The translations under genes were made by a program, and so were the position numbers. 64,000 nt of DNA, taken from the sequence record NC_048186.1. The stretch is one strand, 5' to 3'. Positions 863 to 45,406 of the stretch are shown here, in pieces. Source of the stretch: Escherichia phage vB_EcoM_KWBSE43-6. A model generated the notes under the pieces. It worked only from the letters and a program-made list of their open reading frames with translations, made no database searches and was not told where the DNA came from. Within the stretch, counting starts at the first letter, position 1, and every line of letters begins with the position of its first letter.

Positions 863-901
863 CTAAATACCCCTAGACGATTACATGTGCTAGGGGTATT
901 T
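863..901 (+). promoter_or_regulatory. late-promoter-like CTAAATA box inside a 12-bp perfect palindrome abutting the start codon
   Basis: CTAAATA 863-869; arms AAATACCCCTAG 865-876 and CTAGGGGTATTT 890-901, 13-nt loop; ATG at 906. Confidence 0.5.
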
Positions 902-905
902 TCAA

Positions 906-3900
906 ATGGCTAATAAACCCACGAAACCAAATTTTCCGCTTGGGCTTGAATCACAAGATCAATCCGTATTTCAAGAAGGTATTCTGAATAATGGTGTTGT
1001 AGAACATGGCCCAGATGCGGTAATGACTGTGCCAGAAACTCCTGACGCATCTGGGGTTCCTTCTGCTGTCCGTTATAACGAAGATGACGACCAGTTTGAA
1101 GGCTATTACAACGAAGGCGGTTGGTTGCCGCTTGGGGGTGGTAACGGTGGGCGCTGGGAACTCCTTCCGCATGCCCCCTCTTCCTTGTTACAGCTCGGTC
1201 GTGCATATCTGGTGGATAACACTGACGGTGCCTCTACGGTGGTTTTCCCTCCCCCTAAACGGGTTGGTGATAGCATCACTGTGTGTGACCTTTTTGGTAA
1301 ATTCTCAACTTATCCTCTGACTGTTGACGGTAACGGTAAATCGATCTATGGCTCTGCGGATAGCATGACGATTTCTACCGATAACGTCAGCGCGACGTTT
1401 ACGTGGACTGGTGAATCCCGTGGCTGGGTTATTACATCAGGCGTCGGTCTGGGACAAGGCCGGGTTTATAGTCGCGAAATTTACAGCCAAATTCTGTCAG
1501 CGACAACACCATCTATTACCCTGAGCACTCAACCATCTATTGTAGATGTGTATGTTGACGGAAAACGTTTGAAAGAATCCCTGTATACTCTCGACGGGTA
1601 TGAAGTTAAATTCGATCCGGCGCTGGCCTCTGGTTCTGATGTGCAGATTATTCAGTACATCCCAATTCAGCTCGGCGCGGGCGGTGGGGGTTCTGGTGGA
1701 ACTGTAATCACCTGGGAATACAACGGCGGCTCAGCTATCGGCGGAGAAACCCAAATCGTGTTGGATGTGGTCGTGGACTCAGTATCTGAGATCTACATCC
1801 GTGGTTCCCGTCAACAGATAGGGCGCGGGTTCACATTTGATCCTGCCACCAGTACGATTACCTTGGCGGATGAACTGGATGCCGGGGATGACGTTGTCGT
1901 CGTTATCAACGGTGACCCAACGGTCTACAACCAAATAGATCGCACTCCTTGGGAAGTTGCTCGGGCGTTTAACGTCTCAAATAACAGCGTCATTATGAGC
2001 AATGACAGGAATACTACCCTTGACGGGAAAACGATAGTATACGATATTAACAGTCAAAACTCTTGGGAAATTCCTGCTGGTATTCCTGTTGGCGCTAAAA
2101 TATCAAGTGTTTCTTCAGGGATTCTTGTGTACACCCCTGGTAACGTCAGTGTCACATTGACATTGTTGACGACGGGTACTACTGTTCTGAAACGCCTCGC
2201 CAATAGCAATTCTGGTAACGGCGGTGATATGGTTCTTTACAAAGCATCTTCAAATGCTGTGGAAAGAGCTATTTCTATGGCGTTGAAAGATTTTGTAAAC
2301 CTCCATGATTATTATCTGTCTTCTGATAACGGAGATTGGTATCCTGCATTTAACAGGGCTTTCCAAGATTCCCAAAATATTTTAGTTCCTTATGGTTCTC
2401 ATGTTGTCAAAACCACGGTTGTTCCACCATCCAATTCAAAAATAATTGGTCTTGGGGAAGCCAGTATCGTTAAATCACCAGATGCGATTGACGCCGCCGC
2501 CACAAACCTCGTTACCGTGTTTCGGGCTACTGGTTCAGATAATATATTGATTTCTGATATTACAATAGATGGTGGTGTTAACGAAGTCAACACCGCCAAA
2601 TCCTTTACACGAACTGTAAGGTTCATTAATTGTACCAACGTGTCGTTGCTGAGGGTTCGAGTATTAAACAACGCGGATTGGTCGACATCGTTCGAAGGCG
2701 GTCATGACTTTACGGTGAAGAATTATTACCAAAGATCGTATCGTTATCAGAACACTGCTATCAATTTGAATGGTGGACGTGATGGCCTACATTTCATGGA
2801 TTGTTATAATGTGAATGCAGACGGCCTTGACATAGAATCTGGTGATGATTGCGTGGGTATCACCACTACTGGTACAGATCTTGAAAATATCACGATTCGT
2901 AACCTGTGGGGTTCATCCAATATTGCTTCTCTCGTTATTTTTAACGAAGAAAAAGATTCTAACGATGTGTACTATTCAGCTAATGTCACTGGATTGAATA
3001 TTAGTGGTATCAGGATCAAGAAAGGCGGCAACGCTCGAAATATCGTCAGGGTTATAGGATACGGTGCCAACACCCAAATCAAAGATGTTTCAATCTTGGA
3101 TGTAAGGGGAAAAGCCTTTAACTCTTATGGTATTTGGGTGCAAGGTAGCGTTGACCATCCAGTAGACACAGTACACATAAGCAATTCAGACGTTGGTTCA
3201 CAACAGGCCCACGGCGTTCTGTTGCAGAATATAAAACGTTTGTCCGGTAACGTCTATGGTTATTATGAGGGTGTGAATTCTTCCGCTTCATTTGTTGGTG
3301 TGAACATGGTTTCGATCACTGGTGCGATGTTCACTCCAGGTTCTAGAAGTTCTTACGGGTATGGTGTACAAGTTCTGACCAGTAAAGATATCGTGCTGAC
3401 ACCTGATATCGAAAGTTGCGGCGCTGGGTTGTTCAGCTCTGCTTCTGGGGGTAATTTACGAATAGTAAACTGTGATGGTGTAACCATACCTTATGGCCGT
3501 GCCGTCGGGGACGTGGCTGTCAGCTATTGGGGTATCAACTTCGGTGGAAATACAAATTTAGACGTGGGTCTGGAATTCGTGTTTGGTGGGTTTACCAACT
3601 CGTCTCTCCCGAACTCTTATTATTTAAAAGCCCCAGCAGTTGATATCAAATGGAAAGAAGCGTCTGACGGGACTGTGACTATGAGTATCGCTCGTGGCGC
3701 CAGTATAGTCAGAAACAGCCAAGGCAATTTTACAATAACGTTCAACAATGATATGCGCAGTACATTGTTTTCTTGGCAGGCGACCGCCTATCACAATGGC
3801 GCGTTACGTTTAGTTCGTCTTGCTTCTGCTGTGGGGACTAAAACGATGACGATACAAGTAACGGATACGGCAAATGCCGCGACGTTCGCTGATTTTATAG

Positions 3901-3935
3901 AATTGAAAGCGTTTAACACTGCTACAGGATCTTAA
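906..3935 (+). CDS. tail spike protein, 1009 aa (TSP4-like), pectate-lyase-type beta-helix
   Basis: ATG 906; beta-helix signatures (NNADWSTSFEGGHDF, GRDGLHFMDCYNVNADGLDIESGDDCVGITTTG); N-terminal Ig-like modules as in gp10-like attachment domains; late-promoter hairpin upstream. Confidence 0.75.
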   Translation: MANKPTKPNFPLGLESQDQSVFQEGILNNGVVEHGPDAVMTVPETPDASGVPSAVRYNEDDDQFEGYYNEGGWLPLGGGNGGRWELLPHAPSSLLQLGRAYLVDNTDGASTVVFPPPKRVGDSITVCDLFGKFSTYPLTVDGNGKSIYGSADSMTISTDNVSATFTWTGESRGWVITSGVGLGQGRVYSREIYSQILSATTPSITLSTQPSIVDVYVDGKRLKESLYTLDGYEVKFDPALASGSDVQIIQYIPIQLGAGGGGSGGTVITWEYNGGSAIGGETQIVLDVVVDSVSEIYIRGSRQQIGRGFTFDPATSTITLADELDAGDDVVVVINGDPTVYNQIDRTPWEVARAFNVSNNSVIMSNDRNTTLDGKTIVYDINSQNSWEIPAGIPVGAKISSVSSGILVYTPGNVSVTLTLLTTGTTVLKRLANSNSGNGGDMVLYKASSNAVERAISMALKDFVNLHDYYLSSDNGDWYPAFNRAFQDSQNILVPYGSHVVKTTVVPPSNSKIIGLGEASIVKSPDAIDAAATNLVTVFRATGSDNILISDITIDGGVNEVNTAKSFTRTVRFINCTNVSLLRVRVLNNADWSTSFEGGHDFTVKNYYQRSYRYQNTAINLNGGRDGLHFMDCYNVNADGLDIESGDDCVGITTTGTDLENITIRNLWGSSNIASLVIFNEEKDSNDVYYSANVTGLNISGIRIKKGGNARNIVRVIGYGANTQIKDVSILDVRGKAFNSYGIWVQGSVDHPVDTVHISNSDVGSQQAHGVLLQNIKRLSGNVYGYYEGVNSSASFVGVNMVSITGAMFTPGSRSSYGYGVQVLTSKDIVLTPDIESCGAGLFSSASGGNLRIVNCDGVTIPYGRAVGDVAVSYWGINFGGNTNLDVGLEFVFGGFTNSSLPNSYYLKAPAVDIKWKEASDGTVTMSIARGASIVRNSQGNFTITFNNDMRSTLFSWQATAYHNGALRLVRLASAVGTKTMTIQVTDTANAATFADFIELKAFNTATGS

Positions 3936-3936
3936 C

Positions 3937-4173
3937 ATGAATATAAATTGTGTTTTTGTGAAAGACGAAATTCCCCTTGAGAAACAAGATGACTTTTTGA
4001 AATTATTTTTGGAAAGAATATCATTGGAATTCTCTGATGTCGTGATAACGGCAGAATGGGGAGACGATGAAACTGCTGTCGTTTCAGAGGATTGTTCTGA
4101 TTACGTCAAAGCAAATTATCAAAGATTTGTAGACGGTCTTAAACAAGACCTCATTATTTTCGATTATTTCTAA
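3937..4173 (+). CDS. hypothetical protein, 78 aa, acidic
   Basis: ATG 3937 two nt after upstream stop; AT-rich small ORF between tail-spike genes. Confidence 0.5.
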   Translation: MNINCVFVKDEIPLEKQDDFLKLFLERISLEFSDVVITAEWGDDETAVVSEDCSDYVKANYQRFVDGLKQDLIIFDYF

Positions 4174-4174
4174 A

Positions 4175-4212
4175 CTAAATACCCCATATTGGTAACGCCT
4201 TATGGGGTATTT
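4175..4212 (+). promoter_or_regulatory. late-promoter-like CTAAATA box inside a 12-bp perfect palindrome abutting the start codon
   Basis: CTAAATA 4175-4181; arms AAATACCCCATA 4177-4188 and TATGGGGTATTT 4201-4212; ATG at 4216. Confidence 0.5.
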
Positions 4213-4215
4213 CAA

Positions 4216-6795
4216 ATGGCCAGAAACATAGAAGAAATTTTCGGTGGGGTAGTCGTAGCACCACACCAGATCCCGTTCACGTACACTTCAACAAACGGTG
4301 GGGAAACTTTTATATCTCTGCCATTTTATCCCATCACCGGGTTCGTTACTATCAACGGTGGTGTACAGGTCCCTCTTGACAATTTCGAAATAGACGGAAA
4401 CACATTAAATCTTGGTCGAGAACTGGATCCAAGTGATGTTGTGTTCTGTTTGTTCGATAAAATCATGTCACCTCAAGATGCCAGTAACAACGCAGTTCGA
4501 GTTTATAAATTCATCTCTGTTGGAGGAGAAACGGAATTCACTCCAGATTTTACGGCGTATGGTGTCCAATCTCTTTATATCAATGGGAAATACCAAATAG
4601 CTGGTGAGGATTACACATATTCTAAGACAGATGGGAAAGTTTCTTTTACTACCCCATTAGTTACTGGAGTATGGGTTGCAGCTGAGATGAACATAAAGCA
4701 AAATATCCCCGCTTTAGCTGGCAATAATGGCGCATCACAAATCGGAACAGAATCAGGGCAAAATGTTCAATTAGAACTCGATTCATTCCGTAATTTGTTC
4801 GGGGAATATGGGTTTAGCATGATAGGGCAAACCACATATCAAGGATTGAGGAATTATAACGGCAATTCCAATTATATGATGATATATGGTAGATCCTATC
4901 TTCTAGATGGTGGTCATGGTATATTTGATTTAGTTCCTGGCGGTAATGCCATGACAACCCCTGACGATGATTGTGTGCATATTCGAGATACGTTGGGGCG
5001 GTTATGGCGTCGTAGATTTGAAGACAATGTCATAAGAATGAGCTGGGCGGGTGCTAAAAACCAATTAGAAACATCATCACCACAAGATGATGCTTTCAGG
5101 AACTGCCTGCTTGCGGCCAAATCGTTGTCTCCTACTGGTTATCCACAATCAATCATTAAAGGATTAGACCGTGGTGTAGTTTATCTTGCAGAGCGGCATT
5201 ATATCCGTTGTGGTAATTTCCCTGAATATATGGCGTGGAAATTGCCACCTACTGGTGGTGGTGACCGTTTTGGGCTGGATCTGCTGTGTGCATTGGGAGA
5301 AGGGGCGGGGTTCTTTATCGTCCAAGCTAATAACCCATTGTTGCGCGTCCGGGTAGACAACACTGGTATCCCATTCAATGTTTCGAATTATACTGATGCC
5401 CAACTTGTGAGTATAGTTGAGAACAATTATATCTTACGTTTGGAATCAATGGTGAACGCTCCGGAATTCGACGTTCATCCAGGTAATTATCCCGGTACTG
5501 TTCTTTACAGCACGGGTAAAAAGGATTATTCTGCAGTAACTGCACAATGGCCTGATTTGGTCCAAGTCTTACCGTCTATACAGAACGTCGGTAACGCGGT
5601 GTTTAACATAAAAAACTGTGGTCGAGATTTTATGTTAACCAATACTGGGGCTGGGTTGGGTCATTTTCATTCCGTTTGGTCACAAAATAACCGACTCCCT
5701 GGTTATATATCGAACTGCTATGATTTAACGATGACATATGAAGATTATGTCCCACACAACGAAACATCTGGTGGATTGATATTTAGTGAATGTGGCACTC
5801 TTTCTTTAGAAAATATTTTGATTGGCGCAGGTGGGGTAGGACATTTGTGTATATGGGATTGCCGTAACGTCCATATGAACCGTCATATCTCTATATGTGG
5901 TAATACCACTTGGGCTGCATCTAACCAAGTAGATGATCTTTATGCTTTAGAAATTTGTAACTCCGAAGTTCATATGAGCGGCGTGCATGCTCAAAACTCT
6001 GGTAAATTCGCACGTGTAGGATTCAATTCACAATTAACGGTTGATCACCTTACTGCATGGGATGTTTCAAAATTATTCTTGATGACGAATGATTTGACTA
6101 AATTGAAATATCGTGGGCAGCGGCAGGCTGTTACAGGGGACCCGAGCCGGATTTATGTGACATCAGGATTCGCTCAAAACCTTAACGCATCTCAGTTCGG
6201 TTGGGCTTGTGCTCCTGTAATAGAAATCGACAGCACAGTTAACGGTGATTTCAAATTTTATTGGAATTGCTGGACCAATAACGTTCATGCAGGGTATGGA
6301 TCTGAATCTGAAGCAAATCTTGCTATTATTAGCGTGGCTTCTACAAGTTCTACAGGATCTGTGTCATTCGGCGAAGACGCTAAATTGGAAGGTAATACGA
6401 CGAACTACGTCCTTCGTCTTGCAAACAAAAACCAATTGGGGAAAGTGCGCACTCGTCAAACATCTTTCTGTCGTGTACGTTATACCAATGACAACTCACA
6501 GTCATCTTTTGCAATGCGCGAAGCTGCTCATGACAATGGAACTACTGTGATCCCTATTGACGGAACAACATACAGCTATCCGTACCGCAGACCTGCTAAA
6601 TATTTCGTATCTTTAAACGTCCCTGCTGGTGGTGGTTCATGCTCAGTGACATTAAACGGTATGACGATTTTCCAAACTACGGTAGTCGGGACACATGGTA
6701 TAGTTATTGAAATGAAATACCAAGAAACCGTCGTGTTTACGTCATCCAACGTTACTGTATCGAATGCGCAGTGGCGTTATATTTTGGAGGAATAA
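4216..6795 (+). CDS. tail spike protein, 859 aa (TSP2-like), beta-helix
   Basis: ATG 4216 (track start 4189 is TTG inside the hairpin); same upstream architecture and tttcaaATGGC start context as 906 gene; beta-helix-like repeats in C-terminal half. Confidence 0.7.
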   Translation: MARNIEEIFGGVVVAPHQIPFTYTSTNGGETFISLPFYPITGFVTINGGVQVPLDNFEIDGNTLNLGRELDPSDVVFCLFDKIMSPQDASNNAVRVYKFISVGGETEFTPDFTAYGVQSLYINGKYQIAGEDYTYSKTDGKVSFTTPLVTGVWVAAEMNIKQNIPALAGNNGASQIGTESGQNVQLELDSFRNLFGEYGFSMIGQTTYQGLRNYNGNSNYMMIYGRSYLLDGGHGIFDLVPGGNAMTTPDDDCVHIRDTLGRLWRRRFEDNVIRMSWAGAKNQLETSSPQDDAFRNCLLAAKSLSPTGYPQSIIKGLDRGVVYLAERHYIRCGNFPEYMAWKLPPTGGGDRFGLDLLCALGEGAGFFIVQANNPLLRVRVDNTGIPFNVSNYTDAQLVSIVENNYILRLESMVNAPEFDVHPGNYPGTVLYSTGKKDYSAVTAQWPDLVQVLPSIQNVGNAVFNIKNCGRDFMLTNTGAGLGHFHSVWSQNNRLPGYISNCYDLTMTYEDYVPHNETSGGLIFSECGTLSLENILIGAGGVGHLCIWDCRNVHMNRHISICGNTTWAASNQVDDLYALEICNSEVHMSGVHAQNSGKFARVGFNSQLTVDHLTAWDVSKLFLMTNDLTKLKYRGQRQAVTGDPSRIYVTSGFAQNLNASQFGWACAPVIEIDSTVNGDFKFYWNCWTNNVHAGYGSESEANLAIISVASTSSTGSVSFGEDAKLEGNTTNYVLRLANKNQLGKVRTRQTSFCRVRYTNDNSQSSFAMREAAHDNGTTVIPIDGTTYSYPYRRPAKYFVSLNVPAGGGSCSVTLNGMTIFQTTVVGTHGIVIEMKYQETVVFTSSNVTVSNAQWRYILEE

Positions 6796-6797
6796 TA

Positions 6798-7097
6798 ATG
6801 ATTAAAGCAATCAAAGGGGATTTCACTGCTGTAACTTCAGTAGGAGAAATTTCATATCAATACGCTACTGTCCAGACTTTTCGGGGAGATGCAACGAGCG
6901 TGACCGTAGATGTATTTCTTTCCGATCGCTGGATTATCCAACGGGACGGGATCAATGTGGTAGATGATACTGCGCCTGGATTTTTCAAATCTGTACAGTT
7001 TGCTCCTGATTGGCAGAGCAGTTTGAATATCATAGATCAGGCTTATGAATATTTGAAAAGTCTTCCAGAGTTTTCAAATTCTACTGATGTTGTATAA
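6798..7097 (+). CDS. hypothetical protein, 99 aa
   Basis: ATG 6798 with GGAGG 8 nt upstream; overlaps end of preceding tail-spike gene. Confidence 0.5.
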   Translation: MIKAIKGDFTAVTSVGEISYQYATVQTFRGDATSVTVDVFLSDRWIIQRDGINVVDDTAPGFFKSVQFAPDWQSSLNIIDQAYEYLKSLPEFSNSTDVV

Positions 7098-7130
7098 AGT
7101 TAAGGGGGCTAGACCCCCTTAACTTATTTT
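7097..7130. terminator. bidirectional rho-independent terminator
   Basis: 12-bp perfect stem AAGTTAAGGGGG / CCCCCTTAACTT, loop ctaga, T-tract after; A-tract before serves the minus strand. Confidence 0.6.
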
Positions 7131-7372
7131 TCTATTTGTACAACAATCCCGTTTTCTTTTAAAACAGCTTCCAATTGCTCAATATGTAGCCTTAAATTTG
7201 AGTAGACGGTCGCTGCGATCAAAATTTCTTCACTTAATTTAACAGGTGAGTGAAGTGCGTCTATGTTAAAATTTCCTCCTGACGCAATAACTTTTCCATC
7301 TTCGTTAAATGTGTAGATGCAAGGATCTGGTTTATTTTTCTTAATCTTTATCAGTATTTCTTGTTTCCCCAT
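7124..7372 (-). CDS. hypothetical protein, 82 aa, opposite orientation inside tail-spike cluster
   Basis: ATG (minus) at 7370-7372 with GGAGA 9 nt upstream; stop lies in bidirectional terminator. Confidence 0.45.
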   Translation of the reverse strand: MGKQEILIKIKKNKPDPCIYTFNEDGKVIASGGNFNIDALHSPVKLSEEILIAATVYSNLRLHIEQLEAVLKENGIVVQIEK

Positions 7373-7442: not shown

Positions 7443-7449
7443 CTAAATA
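7443..7449 (+). promoter_or_regulatory. late-promoter-like box CTAAATA
   Basis: CACTAAATACAAG 39 nt upstream of ATG 7488; same 13-mer context upstream of 9822 gene. Confidence 0.4.
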
Positions 7450-7487: not shown

Positions 7488-9491
7488 ATGAATCCGCAAT
7501 TTAGTCAGCCCGGTGGTTCCGTCTCTAAAGACGTGAACAAACAATCTATCGCACGTGTATTCTCTAAGAAAAAGAGTGATATATCATATTTGAAAGTTGG
7601 TTCTAGCGTTAATGGTTATGCTGTGCTATTCGAGCCGACAACCCAAACGTGTTGGTTTAGAGGGACTGCAACAGGTAATACAGTTTCTTGGACTATCAAC
7701 AATGATATCATGACTTTAGTGACTTCGGGTGGTTCCTTCACTCTGAACAAAGCCCAAGTTTGGGATTCTGTTACACTTTCCGGTGGAAATGCGACGAGTT
7801 TGATCGGAACACCTTCTGGTGGAACGTTAGCTAATCTGTTATTACGGACTGTGTCTCCTGCTGAATTCGGATTAGAAAACGATCCAACAGGAGTCAAAGC
7901 AGATAAAAATACCATGGCTGTTCAAAAGGCTATTCGTTACCTGAATTCTTTGGGTGGTGGACGTCTCTTGTTCCCTACTGGGCAATACACATTTTGCTAT
8001 GGAATTTGGTTGTTTGACAACATTCTGATCGATCTGAACGGTAGCATCTGTACTTTCAAAAACGCAACTTTTCCATTACGCAGTCGGGCATGTTTTGTTA
8101 TGGGTTCTTCTTATGAAGTCAACCGTGACAAGGCTATGAGTTTTTATGATGACGGCACCTACATCAACAACCCAAACCCGACCAATACAGCATATGTGAA
8201 TTTGCCGTTGGGAACGTTTTTGCGTGACAATGTCAATAAAGCGGAAATCAAAAACGCGCATATAATGAATGGGCATATCAAAGCCACGTTTGATTCCCCT
8301 ACTGCAAACGGTGCTTATGCAATAAATATGGCAAATGCGATGTATTGCACAGCACATGATTTATTCTTTACTGGATTCACAGAAGCCATAAACATGGGTT
8401 CGGATACTGGTTCTGAAACTCCGTCTTGCCATGGTTGTCTGGCTCATGATCTTTATATCGTTCAGCCTGACCAAAATAAAACTTATTATTCAATTGGTTT
8501 TATTTCAAACTCCACCAACTGTTCCATTCAACGGGCGATACAATATCTGCCTTGCGCCGCCGGGACAGAGAACGGGTCGGGTGTGGCTACTAACGTCGTT
8601 GAAGATTGTATTATAGAGGACATATTCATACCTTCTTTGGGTATTACGCAATCTTCTGAAGGGGTTCTTTTAAACAACGCAAAAGGATGTGTTGTGAGGA
8701 ACATTTGTGTCCGAAACTGTAAAGTGGTGGTGGCTGTTTATTATGTCAGCACCAGCTATATCAGTGCTGACAAATGGAATCATATTTCTGGCATAACTGG
8801 CCAAGGCACAGTTGCATTGATCGCAGTGCGCGGAAAATATACCACATTTACCGGATTCGCTGCGGATTCAACGACGCCGTATGAAATATATTTCGGGACT
8901 ACAAACGGATCTAACAACCGTATTGAACAAGAACCGGCTAGTATGTATTTCACAGAGACATCAACGGTCAAACAATATTGGTATTGCAATAACAACTACA
9001 TCAAAGGATGGGTCGTCAAATATCTGTATTTGCGGCCAATGAATACACTGGTGAATGACAAATCTGTTGCATTCAACTGGAACATGAACAAATCCGTGTC
9101 AGCCAACGATGACACCACGTTGTATTTCTTATGGGAAGTTCCTCCGTCCGTGAAGGCTATAAAGGCGGTCAAACTTTTCGCATATTACAATACCAACGCA
9201 GTGGCTAAAGGAAGTAATATCAAAATAGAAGTTCGTAGGATGATAGCGTTTGATGGTAACGCTAACACGTTGCCGTACATAGAACCTGCCATTGGTGCAA
9301 CTTCTACAGCAACGGTGGATCAACAGAATATAGCCATGAGCGCGGTTCATTCCGATACGGTTAGTCCCGGCATGGTAGTAACTGGCGATACTACGAATGG
9401 CCTGTCGAATAGTGTTGACATTTTGGTTACGTTTGCCAACACGTCCAAAAACTCTTTAATGAAAGAAATGGAAATTACATACCTGGGGTGA
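7488..9491 (+). CDS. tail spike protein, 667 aa, conserved N-terminal anchor module
   Basis: ATG 7488; N-terminus MNPQFSQPGGSVSKDVNKQSIARVF... shared with 9822 gene and resembling Ackermannviridae tail-spike N-termini; beta-helix-like C-terminal region. Confidence 0.75.
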   Translation: MNPQFSQPGGSVSKDVNKQSIARVFSKKKSDISYLKVGSSVNGYAVLFEPTTQTCWFRGTATGNTVSWTINNDIMTLVTSGGSFTLNKAQVWDSVTLSGGNATSLIGTPSGGTLANLLLRTVSPAEFGLENDPTGVKADKNTMAVQKAIRYLNSLGGGRLLFPTGQYTFCYGIWLFDNILIDLNGSICTFKNATFPLRSRACFVMGSSYEVNRDKAMSFYDDGTYINNPNPTNTAYVNLPLGTFLRDNVNKAEIKNAHIMNGHIKATFDSPTANGAYAINMANAMYCTAHDLFFTGFTEAINMGSDTGSETPSCHGCLAHDLYIVQPDQNKTYYSIGFISNSTNCSIQRAIQYLPCAAGTENGSGVATNVVEDCIIEDIFIPSLGITQSSEGVLLNNAKGCVVRNICVRNCKVVVAVYYVSTSYISADKWNHISGITGQGTVALIAVRGKYTTFTGFAADSTTPYEIYFGTTNGSNNRIEQEPASMYFTETSTVKQYWYCNNNYIKGWVVKYLYLRPMNTLVNDKSVAFNWNMNKSVSANDDTTLYFLWEVPPSVKAIKAVKLFAYYNTNAVAKGSNIKIEVRRMIAFDGNANTLPYIEPAIGATSTATVDQQNIAMSAVHSDTVSPGMVVTGDTTNGLSNSVDILVTFANTSKNSLMKEMEITYLG

Positions 9492-9740: not shown

Positions 9741-9742
9741 CA

Positions 9743-9767
9743 AAGCCCCTTCGGGGGCTTTTCTTTT
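9743..9767 (+). terminator. rho-independent terminator
   Basis: AAGCCCC ttcg GGGGCTT followed by TTCTTTT. Confidence 0.6.
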
Positions 9768-9821: not shown

Positions 9822-12098
9822 ATGAAAACGCAATTTAACCAATCACAAGGCTCAACTTCACGTGAGACGAATAAAGAAGCGATTGCTCGCATCTTTGGTC
9901 TCAAGAAGTCTCAAGTCGGATATCTGTCAACAACCACTCCAATTGATTCGTATGTCATATTGTTTGACAAAGAAACTCAGACGTGTTGGTATCGAGGTAC
10001 AGCAACAGGTACTCCAATTTCTTGGAATGTCAATGGTGAATCATTATCTTTGACAACTAATTCTGGAACTTCTATATTAACTAAATCTAAACCATGGGAT
10101 GAATTGAATCAAAAACTATCATCACCACAAGGATTTGGTGCGATAGGCAAATTTTCTTCTTTGATTAATTTAAGAAATCATGAACCCACATACCCTGGCG
10201 AATCTGTGATTTTAGAAAGAATAGCGTCTGGGAAACCGACAGTTAACGTAGTGCTAAGGCATGATCCTACTGATACCACGTCTGTGGATGACGACATAAG
10301 CATATTTGTTACACCTGGTGGTGCTCGTTGGAAATTGGATATTAGTGATGGTTATGATATGAGACTGGCAGGGGTTAATGTTGATGGTACAAACTTTTCC
10401 TCTGCTTTAAATAAAATAGTCAGTGTCATTATTTCAAAAATAGTAGCTAATGGGCGGGTAAATAATGTTGCTCGTCGCATAAAAGTTGTCCCGACAAATT
10501 TTTTATGTCAATTCTTTTTAACTGATCCTGTTGATTTACCATCAATCGTGTCATGTTCTTTTTATGGGTCACCATTCATAGAATCACAAAACATGACGGG
10601 ACTCTATTCTTTCAGAATAGCCAACCAACCGTTCAGCACGTTGACCAAGGCTATGATGCAAGCAGAAACTTCGTGGCCTAATGGCCCGTTAAACCAAGTT
10701 ATCGGGAATAAAGTTATAAATTCAGGGGATGGCGGGAGAATAACTTTAAGGGGACCCGGATTTTCAGATGGTGTCCCAAGGATAGGTGTTATATTAGGTA
10801 ATGATGTGACCACAGATAAAGACGTGAGGGATTGTAGCGTAGAAGATATGAATATCTTCGGCTTCGACGCTTCTCATACGTTGGGTGGCTATTTTACCTT
10901 TATGGCAGGCTTCCGGAATTGTAACTTCTCGCGTTGTAATGTTGGTATGCGATTACCAAATATCACTGGAAACGCTGGGGAAAGAATGTGGTATGATTCT
11001 TGCACTTTTGGTAACATGACAAGCCATGCATTACACGTATTTGGGGCTGGTACGTATAGCTTGGTCAACACTTCCATAGACTTCATAGGCGGGGATATGT
11101 TCCATTATGGATCTGATTCTTCTGTGTCTATAGAATTTATTTCAGGCCATATAGAAGGTATACAAGGGTATGATGCCGCGAAAGATACTCCGACGAACTA
11201 TTCTCAGGCCAGGGTTCATATCCATTCTGCCGTTCTGAGAGATCCGAGACAAGGAAGCGGCCAATACAGGGGTATAAGGCAACGTTGGTCTTGCCCTTCT
11301 TCTTCATTTGGGCAAGGACTTTCCGTAATAGACGAATCTATTTCCCCCGGAATGGAGAATACAAAACCGAACACTGCATATCCGTGCTTTATGGGTAGTC
11401 CAAGTAATACTGGTGTTTACATAGAAACCCCGCGAACTGCTAACCGGGGAACGCCGTGGTTGAACAGCTATAGTGATTCTTGTTCCAAGAGAATAAATCC
11501 GACATATTTCTTTATAACTTCGGCGGGTACTGGGGAGTTAGGTCAGAGTCAATTAGTGTTGGATTATAACTTTTCATACACCAAAACTGGGGATGGAATA
11601 GTAGAATATGGTGTAGTCGGTGACGCGGATGCAGATGGATTTATACCGTTCAAGATTACTTGTAATGATGTCAATACAGTCATTAATTTGTTCTGTAATA
11701 ACCGATCTAAAGCCACCAACGGAAACAAGCCTTTATGGGGAGCTTGCTCAGTTAAATTGGCGAATTCCGTGGGTGATGTCATGATCGCTCCACTTAGGGC
11801 AACATATTTAGGTTCTACTATCACGTCGATATATAATGACACCACGAAGACGGTAACAAGTACGTTAAATCCTGTTCTTCGTTCAACAAACGTGGGAGTT
11901 GCTCTTAACCTTAGAGATCTGTTGAACGGAAGCGGACTAACAACTAATGACTATCAGGCGACTTATCCTCGATATGTTACTGGTTACTACCAGGGCAATG
12001 ATTTCTTTGTCCCCGGTTTCCGCCTTTGGAATTTCACAGGAACCATATATTTGAAATTGCCTATTTGGTGGTTCGAAGGTGATAACTTTGGAGCATAA
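9822..12098 (+). CDS. tail spike protein, 758 aa, conserved N-terminal anchor module
   Basis: ATG 9822 (GAGGA 8 nt upstream); N-terminus MKTQFNQSQGSTSRETNKEAIARIFG... homologous to 7488 gene; divergent C-terminal receptor-binding/depolymerase region. Confidence 0.75.
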   Translation: MKTQFNQSQGSTSRETNKEAIARIFGLKKSQVGYLSTTTPIDSYVILFDKETQTCWYRGTATGTPISWNVNGESLSLTTNSGTSILTKSKPWDELNQKLSSPQGFGAIGKFSSLINLRNHEPTYPGESVILERIASGKPTVNVVLRHDPTDTTSVDDDISIFVTPGGARWKLDISDGYDMRLAGVNVDGTNFSSALNKIVSVIISKIVANGRVNNVARRIKVVPTNFLCQFFLTDPVDLPSIVSCSFYGSPFIESQNMTGLYSFRIANQPFSTLTKAMMQAETSWPNGPLNQVIGNKVINSGDGGRITLRGPGFSDGVPRIGVILGNDVTTDKDVRDCSVEDMNIFGFDASHTLGGYFTFMAGFRNCNFSRCNVGMRLPNITGNAGERMWYDSCTFGNMTSHALHVFGAGTYSLVNTSIDFIGGDMFHYGSDSSVSIEFISGHIEGIQGYDAAKDTPTNYSQARVHIHSAVLRDPRQGSGQYRGIRQRWSCPSSSFGQGLSVIDESISPGMENTKPNTAYPCFMGSPSNTGVYIETPRTANRGTPWLNSYSDSCSKRINPTYFFITSAGTGELGQSQLVLDYNFSYTKTGDGIVEYGVVGDADADGFIPFKITCNDVNTVINLFCNNRSKATNGNKPLWGACSVKLANSVGDVMIAPLRATYLGSTITSIYNDTTKTVTSTLNPVLRSTNVGVALNLRDLLNGSGLTTNDYQATYPRYVTGYYQGNDFFVPGFRLWNFTGTIYLKLPIWWFEGDNFGA

Positions 12099-12632: not shown

Positions 12633-12656
12633 AGCCCCCTCGGGGGCTTTATTCTT
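12633..12656 (+). terminator. rho-independent terminator
   Basis: AGCCCCC tc GGGGGCT followed by TTATTCTT. Confidence 0.6.
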
Positions 12657-12720: not shown

Positions 12721-15700
12721 ATGCAACAATTGAATCTTAACCGCCGCCCTTATTGGGACGACTGGAATCCAGAGAAGCGTTTCAGCCGCATCCTGTTCCG
12801 CCCAAATCCAATCAAAGTACAGACTCGTGAGCTGAACCAGCTGCAGACTATCCTACAGGATCAAATTGAGAAGATCGGTAATCATCTTTTCAAAGACGGT
12901 TCCATGGTAATCCCAGGCGGTTTGACTATTACCAATTCGGCTGTATCCATGAAGTTCCAGCTGGCGGGTGGGAGCGAATTCACCGACCTGGAAGGCATTC
13001 AAGAACTGTACGTGATTGGCAAAGACAACAACGCCAAGGCCCGTGTATTGTCTCTGGAACGCTACACCAGCGAACCGGATATGATGTTCTGTATCCTGGA
13101 AATGACCGAGTCCGGCACTGCCGATGGATTCAGCCCGAACGATAATCTATACTTCAACACTTATGATGTGAATGATAACTTCATCCGTATCGGTTATGGT
13201 GTTGCACAGACTGTCGGTGGCTCTATTGTTGCTCGGATGACCAAAGGCGTCTATTTCGTTCGTGGGTTCTTCCTCGACGTTGACGATGATATGTTGGTTG
13301 TCAACAAATATGCAAATAACACCAGCCATCGCGTCGGGTTCAAAGTTACTGAAGAAATCGTGACTGAAGAGCAAGATAGTAGTCTGTTCTCCAATGCCCA
13401 GGGTACACCGAACACCAAAGCGCCGGGCGCTCATCGCCTTCGTTTGGATCTGAGTCTTCAGGCGTTTGATTATGACGCAGAAGTCGAAGATTTCGTTGAG
13501 CTGGCGAAGATCAAAGACGGTAAAATCCAGTCTATGGTCACCCAATCGACGTACAATATCCTCGAAGACACTATGGCCCAGCGCACCTATGAGCAAGCTG
13601 GTGACTACAACGTGTCTACTCACCAGATCGACCTTCGCGAACACCTGAAAGAAAACAACAATGGTGGGGTATATACTCCGGCCGAAGGTGGCGATGAAAG
13701 CAAACTGGTTGCGGTAATGAAGCCGGGCATTTCTTATGTCCGTGGTCGTCGTATTGAGAACGTCGGGGAAGAACTCGTCGTCATTGATAAGGCGCGTGAT
13801 ACAGACCTCCTGAACAACACGCCAGTTGCTGTAGCGACAGGTAATTTCCTGACGACCAAGAACTCTAAAGGTGTTCCTGTTATCAGCCGTAGTATTCGCT
13901 ACAAATTGCTGAATGCTTCTGGTGTTACCCAAGCGACTGCCCTGTGTATCTCCGCCGACCGTACCGGGACGGAATTCCGTCTGTATATGCGTGACCTGGT
14001 CGTCACTGGTGATATGAGCACGGTCACCAAAGTCGCTTACGAAGAAAGCGGGACCACGATGTTCTCGGCAGCGTTGGAAACTAATCAGTTCTCACAAAGT
14101 TCATCTATGGATCTCATATTTGAACTGCCTGTCTTTGGCGTGAAAACTTTGGCTCCGACCGGAACGATTGATATCAACTACACCGTCTTGCGTTCTTACA
14201 AAATTACGCTGGATGCGTCAGGTAACGGTTCTATATCTGCACCGCTGGGATACAGTTTTTCTCCGGAATTCTCACTCTACTCCGGAGCGAAATCTGACGG
14301 AACCGCCGCCCAGATCGATATCTCCAGCAGCCTGTCTCTGACCGGGACACCAGTTGGGTCGGCTCTGCAGATTTCCCTCGGTTCCGGTAATGCTCTGCAA
14401 TCTATCAACCTGTTGGCGCTGATGGTACGCACCACTGCTATCATCAAAACCAAAACTGTTACGACTGCTACTGAGACTGTGATCTTCACCAACCAGGCCA
14501 GCATCCAGCTTGCGAACCATGACGGCTACAAATTGACTTCCGTCAAAAATGCCAATGGTGCTGACGTGACCTCTAACTTCACTCTGGATGGCGGGCAGCG
14601 TGATGCGGCGTACTACAAGTCCAGTCTGATATCGGCCACTGGAGCCATTTCAGGCGCGTATACCGTGGAATACACGTATTTCGCTCACAGTACTGGTGAC
14701 TTCTTTACCGCTGATTCGTATACTTCTATTGATTACAAATCAATCCCGAATTATACGTCGAGCACGTCGGGTACAGTGTATGGTCTGGCCGACAGTATAG
14801 ACTTCCGCCCTAAAATCACCAATGGTGCGTCTGATACTGATATGGTGCGGCCTAACACGGCGATCATCATGGACGTTGAATATTATCTGCCTCGCATTGA
14901 TGCTGTGTACCTGGCAGACAACGGCGTTTTCAACGTTGCTCGTGGTATCAGTTCGAACAACCTGGCGGCTCCGGCTATTCCAGCAAACGCCATGCGTTTG
15001 TACGAACTGTTGATTCCCCCATATACTCCGGATATTGACGATATTCAGATCCGTACTATCGACAACCGCCGCTACACAATGCGGGATATCGGTAAGCTGG
15101 ACACCCGTATATCGAACGTCGAGTATTACACAACACTGTCTCAGCTGGAATCTTCGGCTATGACTCAGCAAGTATTCGACCCGGTAACAGGCAACCCACG
15201 TTACAAAAATGGTATCGCTGCTGATCCGTTCAAAGACTTTCGTCTGATTGATGATCTGTCTTCCGACTGGATGGGTTCCGTAGACACCGACAATGGTCGC
15301 CTGCGTCCGTTTGTACAACAAAACGCGATTGACCTGGTTCCGGATGGGTGGGACAAGGTTATGGACGGTATGGTCGTGTGCAAATACACACCGGAAATTT
15401 CTGTTAATCAGGAATATGCGACGACGACGATCAACGTCAACCCATATGCTGTGTTTAACTGGACGGGGTTCCTCAAACTCAATCCGACAACAGATTACTG
15501 GTTTGAAAACTACTACGTTGCCCCTCGTGTTATCAACGAGACGATCAATACCCGTGGTGCTGTCCAAGAAGGTACGGTTTATGGTACATGGCGGACTGTG
15601 TCTGTATCTGAGCGGGTATGGGAACCGCACGGCGCGGGCGGCGTATGGTGGGGATATCGTTATAGAACCACTGTGTCTACACGTGATGTTTCGACTTACA

Positions 15701-18950: not shown

Positions 18951-19161
18951 AGAGTTTGATATCCCGAGGGCCGGGTAGCGCAGTCGCCTGAATATACCCA
19001 TCATGGACGTTATTACTGTCCCACCATTCAATGAAGTCATTCCCGTCAGATTGTTTTACCAAACCGACGATATCATAATCACCACCTGCAATTTTAGCAT
19101 CCACACAGATGATTCTTACTCGACTTCCATCACGAGTTTCTTTGATATCTTCTACTTGCAT
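18949..19161 (-). CDS. hypothetical protein, 70 aa, opposite orientation between neck genes
   Basis: ATG (minus) 19159-19161 with GAGGA 8 nt upstream. Confidence 0.4.
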   Translation of the reverse strand: MQVEDIKETRDGSRVRIICVDAKIAGGDYDIVGLVKQSDGNDFIEWWDSNNVHDGYIQATALPGPRDIKL

Positions 19162-19192: not shown

Positions 19193-19199
19193 CTAAATA
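19193..19199 (+). promoter_or_regulatory. late-promoter-like box CTAAATA
   Basis: CGACTAAATACC 30 nt upstream of ATG 19223. Confidence 0.4.
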
Positions 19200-19222
19200 C
19201 CTTCAAAATTGAGGGTATAGTC

Positions 19223-19864
19223 ATGGCCACTTCAAAATATTTCAACTACACGAACCACCAAGGCACGCAGAAGTTAATTGATGACCTCGTGGTGGAGATG
19301 ATACAATTACGTGGGATCGACGTCAAGTATATTCCACGCGCCATTTATGAAAAATACCCAATTTTAAACGAAGCCGAACATCGTTTCGACCAGGCGTTTG
19401 ATATTGAGGTCTATATGCAGGATTATCAGGGCTTCAACACCCAAATGTGGGAGAAGTTCGGTGGTATCCAGCTACAAGATGAGGTGACATTTACTATCGC
19501 CCGTCGCCGCTTTGCGGAAGTTATTGGTAACGGACCAGGACTGGATCAACAACCTCAGGAAGGGGATCTCATTTATCTTCCGATGGCGAATAAAATATTC
19601 AAGGTCAATAACCCGAATAATGACGAAGACTTCATGCAATTCGGTAAATGGTACACGTATTCATTACCATGTACCTTGTTCCAGTATGGCAACGAAGACT
19701 TCGATACTGGTGTCCCTGAAATTGATGATATTGATAAACGTCTTCAAGATCTTGAAGGTGATGGGGTTTACCAGGATGCTACTCTCCAAACAGACAACCA
19801 GTTTGCTGATGAGATCGAAGAAGATCTGGCCCCCAATAATGTCAAAATAGATTTTGGAGAATAA
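19223..19864 (+). CDS. gp14: neck protein gp14-like
   Basis: ATG 19223 after GAGGG; position between gp13 and gp15 homologs; size and acidic C-terminus consistent. Confidence 0.65.
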   Translation: MATSKYFNYTNHQGTQKLIDDLVVEMIQLRGIDVKYIPRAIYEKYPILNEAEHRFDQAFDIEVYMQDYQGFNTQMWEKFGGIQLQDEVTFTIARRRFAEVIGNGPGLDQQPQEGDLIYLPMANKIFKVNNPNNDEDFMQFGKWYTYSLPCTLFQYGNEDFDTGVPEIDDIDKRLQDLEGDGVYQDATLQTDNQFADEIEEDLAPNNVKIDFGE

Positions 19865-32713: not shown

Positions 32714-32742
32714 CTTTTCAATAAACAGATTTCAATTATTAT
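32714..32742 (+). promoter_or_regulatory. early-promoter-like element (-35 CTTTTC, 17 bp, -10 TATTAT)
   Basis: -35 immediately followed by AATAAAC; 30 nt upstream of ATG 32772. Confidence 0.35.
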
Positions 32743-35461: not shown

Positions 35462-35722
35462 ATGGCTTGTGCGTCATCTATTCCGAAAATGCTTATCCTG
35501 AAATGGTATGAGCACAGTATTTATGCTCGCATCAAATCAGCTGCGAAAGAGGGTCGAAAAACGATCGAATTATTCCGTCCTTGCGCATCCTCCAAAGCGC
35601 ATCGCGATACATTCGTCTTACTGCGTGAATTGGAACGACTCGGCATCAAAATCGAACCTATGCCATGCAGTAACCCGATGGTCAATCTCTTCGTTCTGAG
35701 CAATTTTGAGAATTTGGAATGA
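35462..35722 (+). CDS. hypothetical protein, 86 aa
   Basis: ATG 35462. Confidence 0.5.
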   Translation: MACASSIPKMLILKWYEHSIYARIKSAAKEGRKTIELFRPCASSKAHRDTFVLLRELERLGIKIEPMPCSNPMVNLFVLSNFENLE

Positions 35723-36162
35723 ATACGATTATCCTCATAACTGGTTCGCGTTCTATTACGGAGCGCGACAAAATCTTTGAAAAGTTAGACGAACTTTCTC
35801 ATACAGATTCCGTTTGTAATCTGTATCATCCGTGCGATACCCTATTGATCGCTGGGGAGGCTGTCGGCGTCGATACGATCTGCAAAGATTGGGCTGAATC
35901 CAGAGGGGTGACTTATCTCGGGATGCCTATCCCCGATGAATACTTCGCTACATATGGGAAAGGGGCTGGAAACAAACGCAACCAGGACATGTTAGACAAG
36001 GCGTTGGAGTTATCACAGAAATACAAGGCGGAGATACTGCCTCTGGCTTTCTGGGACGGTTCATCGACTGGTACGCAGGATATGATCAAACGAATCAACA
36101 AAGCAGGGTTGCATTGTAAGGTCATGCTCTTGGGTAAGCCAAAAACCAAACGCCTTCTGTAA
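35719..36162 (+). CDS. SLOG-like (YpsA/DUF2493-type) Rossmann-fold protein, 147 aa
   Basis: N-terminal ILITGSRS strand-loop, central IAGEAVGVD glycine loop, C-terminal WDGSSTGT; pattern recalled from SLOG family. Confidence 0.45.
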   Translation: MNTIILITGSRSITERDKIFEKLDELSHTDSVCNLYHPCDTLLIAGEAVGVDTICKDWAESRGVTYLGMPIPDEYFATYGKGAGNKRNQDMLDKALELSQKYKAEILPLAFWDGSSTGTQDMIKRINKAGLHCKVMLLGKPKTKRLL

Positions 36163-36354: not shown

Positions 36355-36383
36355 TTAAATACCCCCATCAATTGGGGGTATTT
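36355..36383 (+). promoter_or_regulatory. late-promoter-like box TTAAATA inside an 11-bp palindrome abutting the start codon
   Basis: Arms AAATACCCCCA 36357-36367 and TGGGGGTATTT 36373-36383, 5-nt loop; ATG 36388. Confidence 0.5.
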
Positions 36384-36387
36384 TCTT

Positions 36388-37116
36388 ATGAACGCACAAA
36401 TTTATGACGCCCTTGAACAAGGCAATGCATTTAACAATCCTCTCCCGGGATTCTCTGCTACTTCTCAGACGTTAATCACCAGTGGCCAACAAAGTATAGC
36501 TGGTATTACAAGCATCCCGGATACGTCCGTTCAGGCGGCGATAACCGCTGGTGGTTTGACTCCTGCTAAACTCAATACAATGAACACCATGTACGGGACT
36601 GCCAACACCGGGATCGGGACTCTGAATTCTTATGGTGACCAGACCGTTAATGAGGCATACAATAGGATCGGAACTTCAGTATCCTATAAATCCGGCCTCA
36701 AAAGTATTGAACGAGAACCCACCAACTGTGATTTGATTAACAACGCATTCGGTGTTGTACAGACACTTGGTCGTCAATGGTTGACTGCAATGGAGGATGC
36801 CTTATCTCCAATAACAGACAAAGTTCAAGAACTGTATGATCTGGCCAAACAAGGCGCGGCGGCGGGGCTGGCCAAAATACAGGCATTAGCCTCACAGGTC
36901 AACGGATTAATCAATGACGCTGTAGCAAAGGTGAATGGTGTTATTCAGAACATCACTGATGGGATAGCTGCTGAGTTAGCTCATATTGAAGATATGGTGA
37001 AGAAGTGTCTTAATTTCTCCTTTGCTAATGTTCTTGGCGAATGGGCAAAAGATCTTTGCGCAGGCGGTGTCATCAACAATATCGGTTCTAATGATCTGAA
37101 AAATGCCCTGAAATAA
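36388..37116 (+). CDS. hypothetical late protein, 242 aa, coiled-coil-rich (possible virion component)
   Basis: ATG 36388; same palindromic late element as two tail-spike genes. Confidence 0.6.
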   Translation: MNAQIYDALEQGNAFNNPLPGFSATSQTLITSGQQSIAGITSIPDTSVQAAITAGGLTPAKLNTMNTMYGTANTGIGTLNSYGDQTVNEAYNRIGTSVSYKSGLKSIEREPTNCDLINNAFGVVQTLGRQWLTAMEDALSPITDKVQELYDLAKQGAAAGLAKIQALASQVNGLINDAVAKVNGVIQNITDGIAAELAHIEDMVKKCLNFSFANVLGEWAKDLCAGGVINNIGSNDLKNALK

Positions 37117-38807: not shown

Positions 38808-39554
38808 ATGAGTCGACTCCAGGCACTCAAGAAGATCAACAATATTGAGGAACGTCAATATACATTTCAGCAGTACGAATTACCGTACAAGGAGCTGACT
38901 TGTGTAACGAACGAGAATGGACGCCATTACGTTTCCCCAACAGGAGTAAAGTTGACCTCTGTGACAACCATGTTGGGGCGTACCAGTGATCATACATGGT
39001 TGGATGCCTGGGTCGAAAGGCTTGGAGTTGAAGAAGCAGCAATTGAAACACAAAGGTGCGCTGATAGGGGAGAGGCAGTGCATCTTGCTTGTGAGTTATA
39101 TCTGAAGAATGCCCCAATGAAAGATGTTGTGGCCGCCGCCGGACAATATCTGTTCATGTTCATGCAGTTGTTTCCCTATCTGAACCGCATGACAAAGATA
39201 TATGCTCAGGAAATACCTCTATATAGCGAAGTATTGGGCTTGGCCGGGCGTGTGGATTTAATTGGGGTGTACAACGGAACCCCAGCAATTATCGACTTCA
39301 AGACTTCGAACACCCTGAAAACCAGAGACATGATCGAGGATTACAGCATCCAATTGTGTCTGTATTCAGTTATGTTTCAACAGATGTTTAATGTCAAAAT
39401 CGAGCGTCTCATCAACATCATATCCAATGAGAATGGTTTACTGCCGACAGTAATAGAATTCGACAGAAAGGATATTCTCCCAAAAATGTTCGAGCGCGTC
39501 CGTTTATATCACCGTATGGACAAGGAACAGAATGGAATCTGGGCAGACCGCTAA
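38808..39554 (+). CDS. PD-(D/E)xK family nuclease (RecB/Cas4-like exonuclease fold), 248 aa
   Basis: Motifs GEAVH, GRVDL, IIDFKTS, QLCLY in canonical order. Confidence 0.65.
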   Translation: MSRLQALKKINNIEERQYTFQQYELPYKELTCVTNENGRHYVSPTGVKLTSVTTMLGRTSDHTWLDAWVERLGVEEAAIETQRCADRGEAVHLACELYLKNAPMKDVVAAAGQYLFMFMQLFPYLNRMTKIYAQEIPLYSEVLGLAGRVDLIGVYNGTPAIIDFKTSNTLKTRDMIEDYSIQLCLYSVMFQQMFNVKIERLINIISNENGLLPTVIEFDRKDILPKMFERVRLYHRMDKEQNGIWADR

Positions 39555-39557
39555 ATA
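39551..39557 (+). promoter_or_regulatory. late-promoter-like box CTAAATA
   Basis: GCTAAATACTCC 25 nt upstream of ATG 39582. Confidence 0.35.
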
Positions 39558-39581
39558 CTCCATATAATTGGGAGGATTGGT

Positions 39582-45335: not shown

Positions 45336-45359
45336 GGCTATCAGGGTTTCAATATACAG

Positions 45360-45386
45360 CAGAGGCTATAATGGCCTCTGTTTTTG
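45360..45386 (+). terminator. rho-independent terminator
   Basis: CAGAGGC tataatg GCCTCTG TTTTT. Confidence 0.6.
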
Positions 45387-45406
45387 TATTCTAAGAAGAG
45401 GATACC

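Follow-up and report, generated by a model that had tools for sequence, protein, structure and literature searches.

What does a sequence that resembles a phage late promoter do within the ribosome-binding site (RBS) of a tail-spike gene? The question arises twice in a 64,000-nucleotide stretch of Escherichia phage vB_EcoM_KWBSE43-6 (record NC_048186.1, one strand, hereafter the window), where the genes starting at 906 and 4216 are each preceded by a palindrome that pairs the motif CTAAATA and the nucleotides behind it with the Shine-Dalgarno (SD) region, an arrangement to which an earlier note on this DNA had drawn attention. We propose that these two genes, which encode the hub spikes, each lie behind a cassette of the type known from the lysozyme gene e of phage T4, which would link translation to the firing of a local promoter, and we put the probability of this reading at about 60%.

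Hairpin anatomy and rarity

Both genes are tail-spike genes, as the earlier note had supposed: four open reading frames (ORFs) of the window have tail-spike family matches (906-3935, 4216-6795, 7488-9491 and 9822-12098; window features are on the + strand unless stated otherwise). The gene at 906-3935 is TSP4-like, with an N-terminal anchor/assembly region of about 340 amino acids (PMC7506556) that matches the 341-amino-acid N-terminal constructs of CBA120 TSP4 (7rej, E 1.7e-142), and the gene at 4216-6795 is TSP2-like (CBA120 TSP2, 6w4q, E 7.6e-75). TSP4 and TSP2 carry the XD assembly domains and are the hubs of the branched spike complex (PMC11414711, PMC7506556). The 7488 gene matches the TSP3/TSP1 head domain.

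At the TSP4-like gene (site 1), the box CTAAATA (863-869) begins 9 nt past the end of the structural gene upstream (12-854, stop codon 852-854). The left (5') arm, AAATACCCCTAG (865-876), is paired perfectly over 12 bp with the right (3') arm, CTAGGGGTATTT (890-901), across a 13-nt loop (877-889); the right arm includes the G-run (893-896) and the start of the SD-AUG spacer, and ends 4 nt before the ATG at 906. At the TSP2-like gene (site 2), the box (CTAAATA, 4175-4181) begins 2 nt past the stop codon (4171-4173) of a small ORF (3937-4173), and the left arm, AAATACCCCATA (4177-4188), again pairs perfectly over 12 bp with a right arm, TATGGGGTATTT (4201-4212), that contains an SD-like G-run (4204-4207) and ends 3 nt before the ATG at 4216. 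The 12-nt loop of site 2 (4189-4200) has inner GG/CC pairs that are conserved across genera and apical nucleotides that vary. The best anti-SD match of each leader is the G-run, which lies inside the right arm. The inverted repeats described in the earlier note, their distance of 3-4 nt from the ATG and the G-run as the only SD-like sequence are all found as stated; its placing of CTAAATA in the left arm holds for AAATA, the leading CT lying outside.

The hairpins are predicted to be stable (-18.6 kcal/mol, z -3.5, at site 1; -19.2 kcal/mol, z -3.1, at site 2), and in the same folding calculations both leaders are unstructured once the left arm is removed. They are also rare. A search of the whole window for perfect stems of at least 11 bp with loops of 3-20 nt returned five hairpins, against a mean of 0.1 expected from Markov simulations, and three of the five share the box/SD design: sites 1 and 2 and a third at 36357-36383 (site 3, before the gene at 36388), which is absent from the earlier note. 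A chance origin can be ruled out on these figures. The remaining two are a canonical terminator (7097-7125) and an AT-rich hairpin in the coding region of the TSP2-like gene, a perfect 11-bp inverted repeat with a 14-nt loop (TTAACATAAAA / TTTTATGTTAA, 5603-5638). CTAAATACCCC and GGGGTATTT are likewise overrepresented in the window, with four copies of CTAAATACCCC when up to one mismatch is allowed (0.53 expected) and six copies of GGGGTATTT (0.47 expected).

The short distance from the upstream stop codon to the left arm, 3 nt at sites 2 and 3 and 10 nt at site 1, would suit translational coupling, in which a ribosome terminating at that stop codon melts the hairpin and passes the RBS to the next initiation event. 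A terminating ribosome reaches about 9 nt past the stop codon, and the partner of the SD, the C-run, starts 8-15 nt past it; such a ribosome could melt no more than the A-U base of the stem, with the C-run/G-run core still paired, and at site 1 it would stop short of the stem altogether. In addition, the upstream genes differ among phages and the cassette is constant. With the core beyond the reach of the ribosome, we hold coupling to be most improbable.

Predicted masking of the ribosome-binding site

How strongly an RBS is masked was computed as its opening cost, the free energy needed to make positions -18 to +3 single-stranded in an RNA spanning -70 to +20, for the 200 usable genes of KpS110, a close relative. 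The median cost is 6.1 kcal/mol. The TSP4-like gene ranks first of the 200 (21.0 kcal/mol), the endolysin fifth (19.0), the counterpart of the site-3 gene sixth (18.8) and the TSP2-like gene seventh (17.5), and seven of the nine most masked genes have a TAAATA box 29-46 nt upstream. Box genes as a class have a median cost of 10.4 kcal/mol vs 5.9 for the others (Mann-Whitney p = 4.5e-5). When the RNA of the box genes is instead begun where T4 spacing would place the transcription start (the sixth nucleotide past the box), the cost declines to the genome background, about 5 kcal/mol (paired Wilcoxon p = 1.5e-7).

The same contrast is found in the window. From read-through RNA to RNA with the predicted start, the cost drops from 21.1 to 5.9 kcal/mol for the TSP4-like gene and from 18.9 to 5.5 for the TSP2-like gene; folding of both transcript forms, a check that the earlier note had proposed, hence gives a masked long RNA and an open short one. 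The drop is from 19.1 to 3.5 kcal/mol at the site-3 gene (36388), from 17.3 to 5.3 at the neck gene (19223) and from 12.1 to 6.3 at the helicase gene (39582), and six other box genes of the window, at 4-9 kcal/mol on read-through RNA, change little. The exact start site is not critical, every start at or past +4 from the box freeing the RBS. On these folding energies, the long RNA is predicted to be translationally repressed and the short one to be translated.

The pairing between box and SD regions is specific to each site. Own partners outscore permuted ones with at most one exception in 20000 permutations, which argues against a generic pyrimidine/SD attraction, and at the four strong sites the own partner ranks first of 26 each time.

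Conservation across the family

The site-2 element is present in 268 phage records, from hosts that include Salmonella, Klebsiella, Escherichia, Dickeya, Shigella and Erwinia, and the site-1 element in 95. The arms of both are nearly invariant across five genera (Taipeivirus, Kuttervirus, Agtrevirus, Limestonevirus and Nezavisimistyvirus), and they stay constant while the apical loop varies and the spike N-terminus falls to about 70% amino-acid identity. At the TSP4 site of Aglimvirinae the stem extends to 16 bp with one G.U pair. A 13-14-bp version, TTTAAATACCTCTGCA..TGCGGAGGTATTT tctt ATG, precedes the endolysin gene of KpS110 and is conserved in 18 Ackermannviridae contigs; in this stem pairing covers 98.7% of alignment cells, one-sided variation affects three pairs, and a shifted register lowers the pairing to about 50%.

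Similarity between phages begins no more than 3 nt from the box, in at least five unrelated upstream contexts, and such a sharp edge may suggest that the palindrome acts as DNA, as a protein-binding site or a recombination joint at the 5' edge of exchangeable spike modules, with the RNA fold incidental. Spike genes do recombine through conserved 5' ends (PMC11414711), and PeSLs, stem-loop cassettes of T4-like phages, have been proposed as recombination sites (PMC4122927). A homology boundary is expected here in any case, because the sequence upstream belongs to an accessory ORF or to another spike's receptor-binding end, which is variable, and the same design stands before genes that are not exchangeable (endolysin, resolvase, neck gene). 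Above all, stem variation consists almost entirely of C-G to U.G or G-C to G.U changes, which pair only in the sense-strand RNA; the DNA would carry G.T or A.C mismatches instead. A purely DNA-level role is for these reasons highly unlikely. Between paralogous sites, compensated differences are found as well (CTAG/CTAG, CATA/TATG, CCA/TGG and CTCTGCA/TGCGGAG).

CTAAATA as a candidate late promoter

CTAAATA agrees with the T4 late consensus TATAAATA at six of eight positions, and in Kuttervirus-like contigs the box of the orthologous site 3 is exactly TATAAATA. Eleven genes of the window have a box 29-48 nt upstream; in KpS110, 14 of the 18 CTAAATA copies sit 25-60 nt before annotated starts, mostly of genes for virion structure or lysis (baseplate, tail tube, sheath, neck, prohead core, spikes and endolysin). 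The window encodes a gp55-like late sigma factor (62123-62893; phrog_234, E 2.9e-54) that presumably reads the box, and the annotation of KpS110 also includes gp33-like and sliding-clamp genes. A sigma-70 consensus scan gave no more matches than shuffled sequence and is uninformative.

The motif is not new. PMC7283392 cites CTAAATAcCcc as a 'unique regulatory motif' of the ViI-like phages (Ackermannviridae), and sites 1 and 2 are exact copies of it, each placed upstream of a gene in an Ackermannviridae genome; one occurrence listed there, EspM4VN 70604-70614, is the left arm of the hairpin at the TSP2 site. In the literature searched, the motif is handled as a linear one, and the genome papers of CBA120 and AG3 do not mention the hairpins. 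We suggest that the 'cCcc' tail is the strand that would pair with the SD G-run. In T4 late promoters, about one helical turn separates the box from +1 downstream, and this segment is normally AT-rich (PMC2988020), so that a CCCC after the box is better explained by pairing with the G-run than by a need of the promoter. Hairpin-less boxes have no such tail (CTAAATACAAG, CTAAATAATT and CTAAATATAG).

By the T4 spacing rule, transcription would start at about 875 at site 1 and at about 4187 (4186-4188) at site 2, at the 3' end of the left arm, and a late transcript starting there, inside the hairpin, is predicted to lack the 5' strand. The proposed mechanism can be put as follows. The box and the C-run would serve as the 5' arm, and the SD G-run with the first bases of the SD-AUG spacer as the 3' arm. 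RNA arriving from upstream would contain both arms, and its RBS would be locked in the stem; RNA from the cassette's own promoter, begun at the end of the 5' arm, would form no stem and could be translated.

An alternative is that the hairpin is a constitutive attenuator, present on every spike mRNA and setting a low level of translation, either because the real start lies upstream of the left arm or because CTAAATA is not a promoter. Promoter function and start site are indeed predictions, T4 late promoters do not usually have a G/C-rich segment behind the box (PMC2988020), and only the two hub spikes, which need a fixed stoichiometry, carry the hairpin (PMC11414711). An opening cost of about 20 kcal/mol, the highest of the genome, would nonetheless come close to silencing essential structural genes. 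The box has the position and spacing of the KpS110 copies that precede annotated starts, the orthologous site-3 boxes match the T4 consensus exactly, and at sites 1 and 3 the predicted +1 is a purine immediately after the C-run. We judge a constitutive attenuator quite unlikely.

Origin of the RNA that enters the spike genes

The earlier note had read the hairpins as a block to early read-through, restricting the spikes to late transcripts. The gene order speaks against this. In KpS110 the + strand spike unit begins at a divergent intergenic region and runs through a baseplate wedge gene, two more structural genes and the TSP4-like gene, and the wedge gene has its own late box (78603) and a partial mask. 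Between the divergent region and the distal end of the structural block, the + strand has no copy of the early-type motif sought here, TTCAAT-N14-TATAAT; this holds for KpS110 and for the window alike. Because the upstream genes are structural with a late box of their own and no promoter of this early type is present, the RNA that enters the spike cassettes is most likely late. Read-through of an earlier class from upstream, a hallmark of gene e, is indicated at site 3, with early-type promoters at 32717 and 35396, and at the KpS110 endolysin, with one at 2802, but not at the two spike sites.

Temporal gating is plausible for site 3, the helicase gene and the family endolysin; it cannot be the general purpose of the device, since three of the five masked sites of the window have a late gene behind a late gene. 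For the spikes, we consider insulation from upstream late transcripts more likely than early/late gating: late baseplate-operon RNA would arrive masked, and the effect would be expression from the spike's own promoter only.

Several points weigh against the cassette reading: (i) that CTAAATA is a late promoter with a start at +6 is inferred from T4, and for Ackermannviridae the literature searched yielded neither mapped transcript ends (5' or 3') nor toeprints nor reporter data; (ii) the start codons of both spike genes lie 3-4 nt outside the stem; (iii) late genes behind late genes have no evident need for masking, and three late-box genes directly behind an upstream gene (23449, 28249 and 29452) have no mask; (iv) among orthologues only one-sided wobble changes were seen and no two-sided compensatory ones, which is weak as statistics; and (v) conservation of the arms alone does not prove pairing, because promoter and SD function constrain them anyway.

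The TTCAAT-N13-15-TATAAT motif is the other published motif of the family, and its -10 box is often part of a G+C hairpin, in the arm or the loop, with a T-run behind it, as in CAGAGGC TATAAT GGCCTCTG TTTTT. Such promoter-in-hairpin sites occur in the window (45348-45390, 42462, 47033 and 35396) and in KpS110 (66006, 58547, 61100, 22018 and 128922), and several of the genes concerned rank high for RBS masking (KpS110 starts 72336, 31071, 22075, 115371 and 51413). At 19071-19125 of KpS110, between the tail-tube and DNA-end-protector genes, two divergent late boxes overlap as a palindrome, TAAATAATAGATCTGAAGGTATTTA.

Other cassettes, terminators and neighbouring genes

Site 3 (36355-36390) has the box TTAAATA, arms at 36357-36367 and 36373-36383 and a 5-nt loop, and reads TTAAATACCCCCA tcaat TGGGGGTATTT tctt ATG, the ATG being at 36388. 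The gene behind it (36388-37116, phrog_2114) aligns to positions 259-500 of the 500-position 'GTP-binding domain' profile phrog_289, and the ORF 35719-36162 aligns to positions 22-146 of the same profile; the phrog_289-type protein looks split, with the predicted late promoter and mask before its C-terminal part. A weaker cassette (19193-19225, box CTAAATA) precedes the neck/head-closure gene, with a 9-bp stem (19197-19205/19210-19218, ACCTTCAA/TTGAGGGT) that includes one G.U pair, and an ATG at 19223. Before the helicase gene (39551-39584, ATG at 39582) the cassette is partial: ACTCC after the box pairs with the SD GGGAGG.

Beyond the window, a late-box mask is carried by the endolysin and the RuvC-like resolvase of the family (KpS110 3740-3782 and 15300-15345), and in the resolvase cassette of KpS110 the AUG itself is hidden in the hairpin. 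The same logic appears in another geometry at KpS110 gene 71064 (- strand), where the box lies in the loop of a CTCAGTGTGG/CCACACTGAG hairpin that masks the SD. In a pattern scan of viral contigs, unrelated metagenomic phages have TATAAATACCCC...GGGGTATTTTTTATG before endolysin, resolvase, homing endonuclease and neck protein genes. Metagenomic phage contigs also have TATAAATACCCC, a loop and GGGGTATTTTTTTATG before a neck/head-tail adaptor gene, a RusA-like resolvase, a T4-lysozyme-like endolysin and homing endonucleases, and these elements score as intrinsic terminators too.

That score bears on a further alternative, a composite terminator/promoter in which the hairpin ends or stabilises the 3' end of the upstream transcript and overlaps the next promoter and RBS because intergenic space is short, as a late counterpart of the PeSLs, which are themselves documented (PMC4122927). 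The hairpins begin 3-10 nt past a stop codon and are followed by U-rich sequence; the TTCAAT-N14-TATAAT promoters of the family are often embedded in true terminator hairpins; and the metagenomic GGGGTATTTTTTTATG versions score at d +1.7 to +14.5, with site 3 borderline at -0.5 (d is an approximate Carafa score, reliable for relative ranking alone). On that ranking, though, sites 1 and 2 (about -26 and -31), like the non-terminator T4 e (-46), fall far below the canonical terminators of the phage (+13 to +30), and the terminator scan does not flag either spike site, which disposes of a plain intrinsic terminator there. Their loops of 12-13 nt and weak U-tracts are ill-suited to termination, most of the U's merely complement the AAATA of the box, and masked sites of other geometry have no U-tract (KpS110 71064, 78648, 15337 and 101354). 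Nor would a terminator require the SD, which always lies within the 3' arm.

The spike cluster has two layouts, terminator then promoter, or promoter fused into the RBS mask. The late boxes at 7443, 9775 and 12680, whose genes have no hairpin, each stand behind a canonical terminator (7097-7125, 9742-9761 and 12633-12648). Spike genes with a separate upstream terminator (7097-7125 and 9742-9761) have no hairpin, as the composite would predict. The mask is absent from all three box genes with an upstream terminator and also from three of the eight without one; that masks replace terminators is accordingly a trend only. On balance a composite terminator/promoter is an unlikely account of the spike sites, if the least unlikely of the alternatives considered.

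The first 12.5 kb of the window match the Taipeivirus phages UPM2146, cp21, KpS110 and Magnus at 88-96% identity in patches, and the window is Klebsiella Ackermannviridae (Taipeivirus-like) phage DNA. Gene content between the spikes differs from relative to relative: a 78-amino-acid ORF separates the TSP4-like from the TSP2-like gene in the window, and a 554-amino-acid gene occupies that place in KpS110. The between-spike ORFs 3937-4173 and 7124-7372 (- strand) have no family match; the latter has its own GGAG SD and is placed between the terminator 7097-7125 and the box at 7443.

Implications

If the spike cassettes work as we propose, the gene-e device extends to virion genes and to a late-after-late context, and the hitherto unexplained 'cCcc' half of the Ackermannviridae signature motif is given a structural reason. 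The device is predicted at roughly a third of the late-box genes of the family. We would further venture, tentatively and with the odds against it, that the cassette is a portable self-insulating late unit that moves with the conserved N-terminal assembly module of TSP4 and TSP2. RNA entering from upstream would then be silent, and spike dosage would stay constant even as the receptor-binding modules are rearranged and often exchanged; the unit would be a late-promoter counterpart of the mobile PeSL cassettes and part of a family habit of embedding both promoter classes in hairpins. Tail-spike swapping is used to engineer Ackermannviridae phages (PMC11414711). Dropping the left arm, or supplying a foreign promoter with both arms kept, is predicted to change spike translation strongly.

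Comparison with known systems

The spike hairpins share with Rho-independent terminators a stem-loop right after a stop codon and the U-rich sequence that follows. They differ in their 12-13-nt loops, in having only four G-C pairs next to the U's and in a weak U-tract; the combination of G+C-rich stem, 3-8-nt loop and 7-9-nt U-tract that marks such terminators is absent from sites 1 and 2.

Closer are the PeSL/PmSL cassettes of T4-like phages, short conserved promoter-terminator units for which a role in recombination and shuffling has been proposed (PMC4122927, PMC2839356). Both bring together stem-loop, promoter, SD and start codon, and the spike cassettes too sit at junctions of variable and conserved genes. 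PeSLs, however, use early or middle promoters, with the stem-loop upstream of the promoter and free of the -10 box and the SD. At the spike sites there is no early (sigma-70-like) promoter with a stem-loop just upstream; the box is of late type and the stem spans both box and SD. PMC4122927 describes no late-promoter version.

The closest parallel is T4 gene e, for which experiments have shown that long early transcripts form a helix that lowers lysozyme synthesis about 100-fold, and that late-promoter transcripts, which lack the 5' strand, are translated; the leaders of soc, 49 and I-TevI use the same mechanism (PMC3014915). The T4 e leader (TTATAAATACCTTCTATAAATACTTAGGAGGTATTATG; TATAAATACCTTC...TTAGGAGGTATTATG) folds at -15.1 kcal/mol, comparable with the -18.6 and -19.2 kcal/mol of the spike sites. 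Direct comparison recovers the architecture that the earlier note had likened to gene e, with an identical pairing register: AAATACC of the box is paired to GGTATT of the SD-AUG spacer, and the pyrimidines that follow the box (CUUC in T4 e) are paired to the SD. In both systems, including sites 1 and 2, the late-promoter box is in the 5' strand of the hairpin and the SD in the 3' strand, and a gp55-type sigma factor is encoded here as well. Unlike in T4 e, the box at the spike sites is CTAAATA and not TATAAATA, the AUG lies outside the stem, there is one promoter instead of two, and the masked genes are virion tail spikes behind late structural genes, so that the masked RNA is probably late. 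The masked endolysin and RuvC-like resolvase of the family would be the functional counterparts of T4 e and 49, and these two and the genes masked in metagenomic phages belong to the gene classes known for the device in T4. The device itself is thus already known and widespread; its use on tail spikes is the new element.

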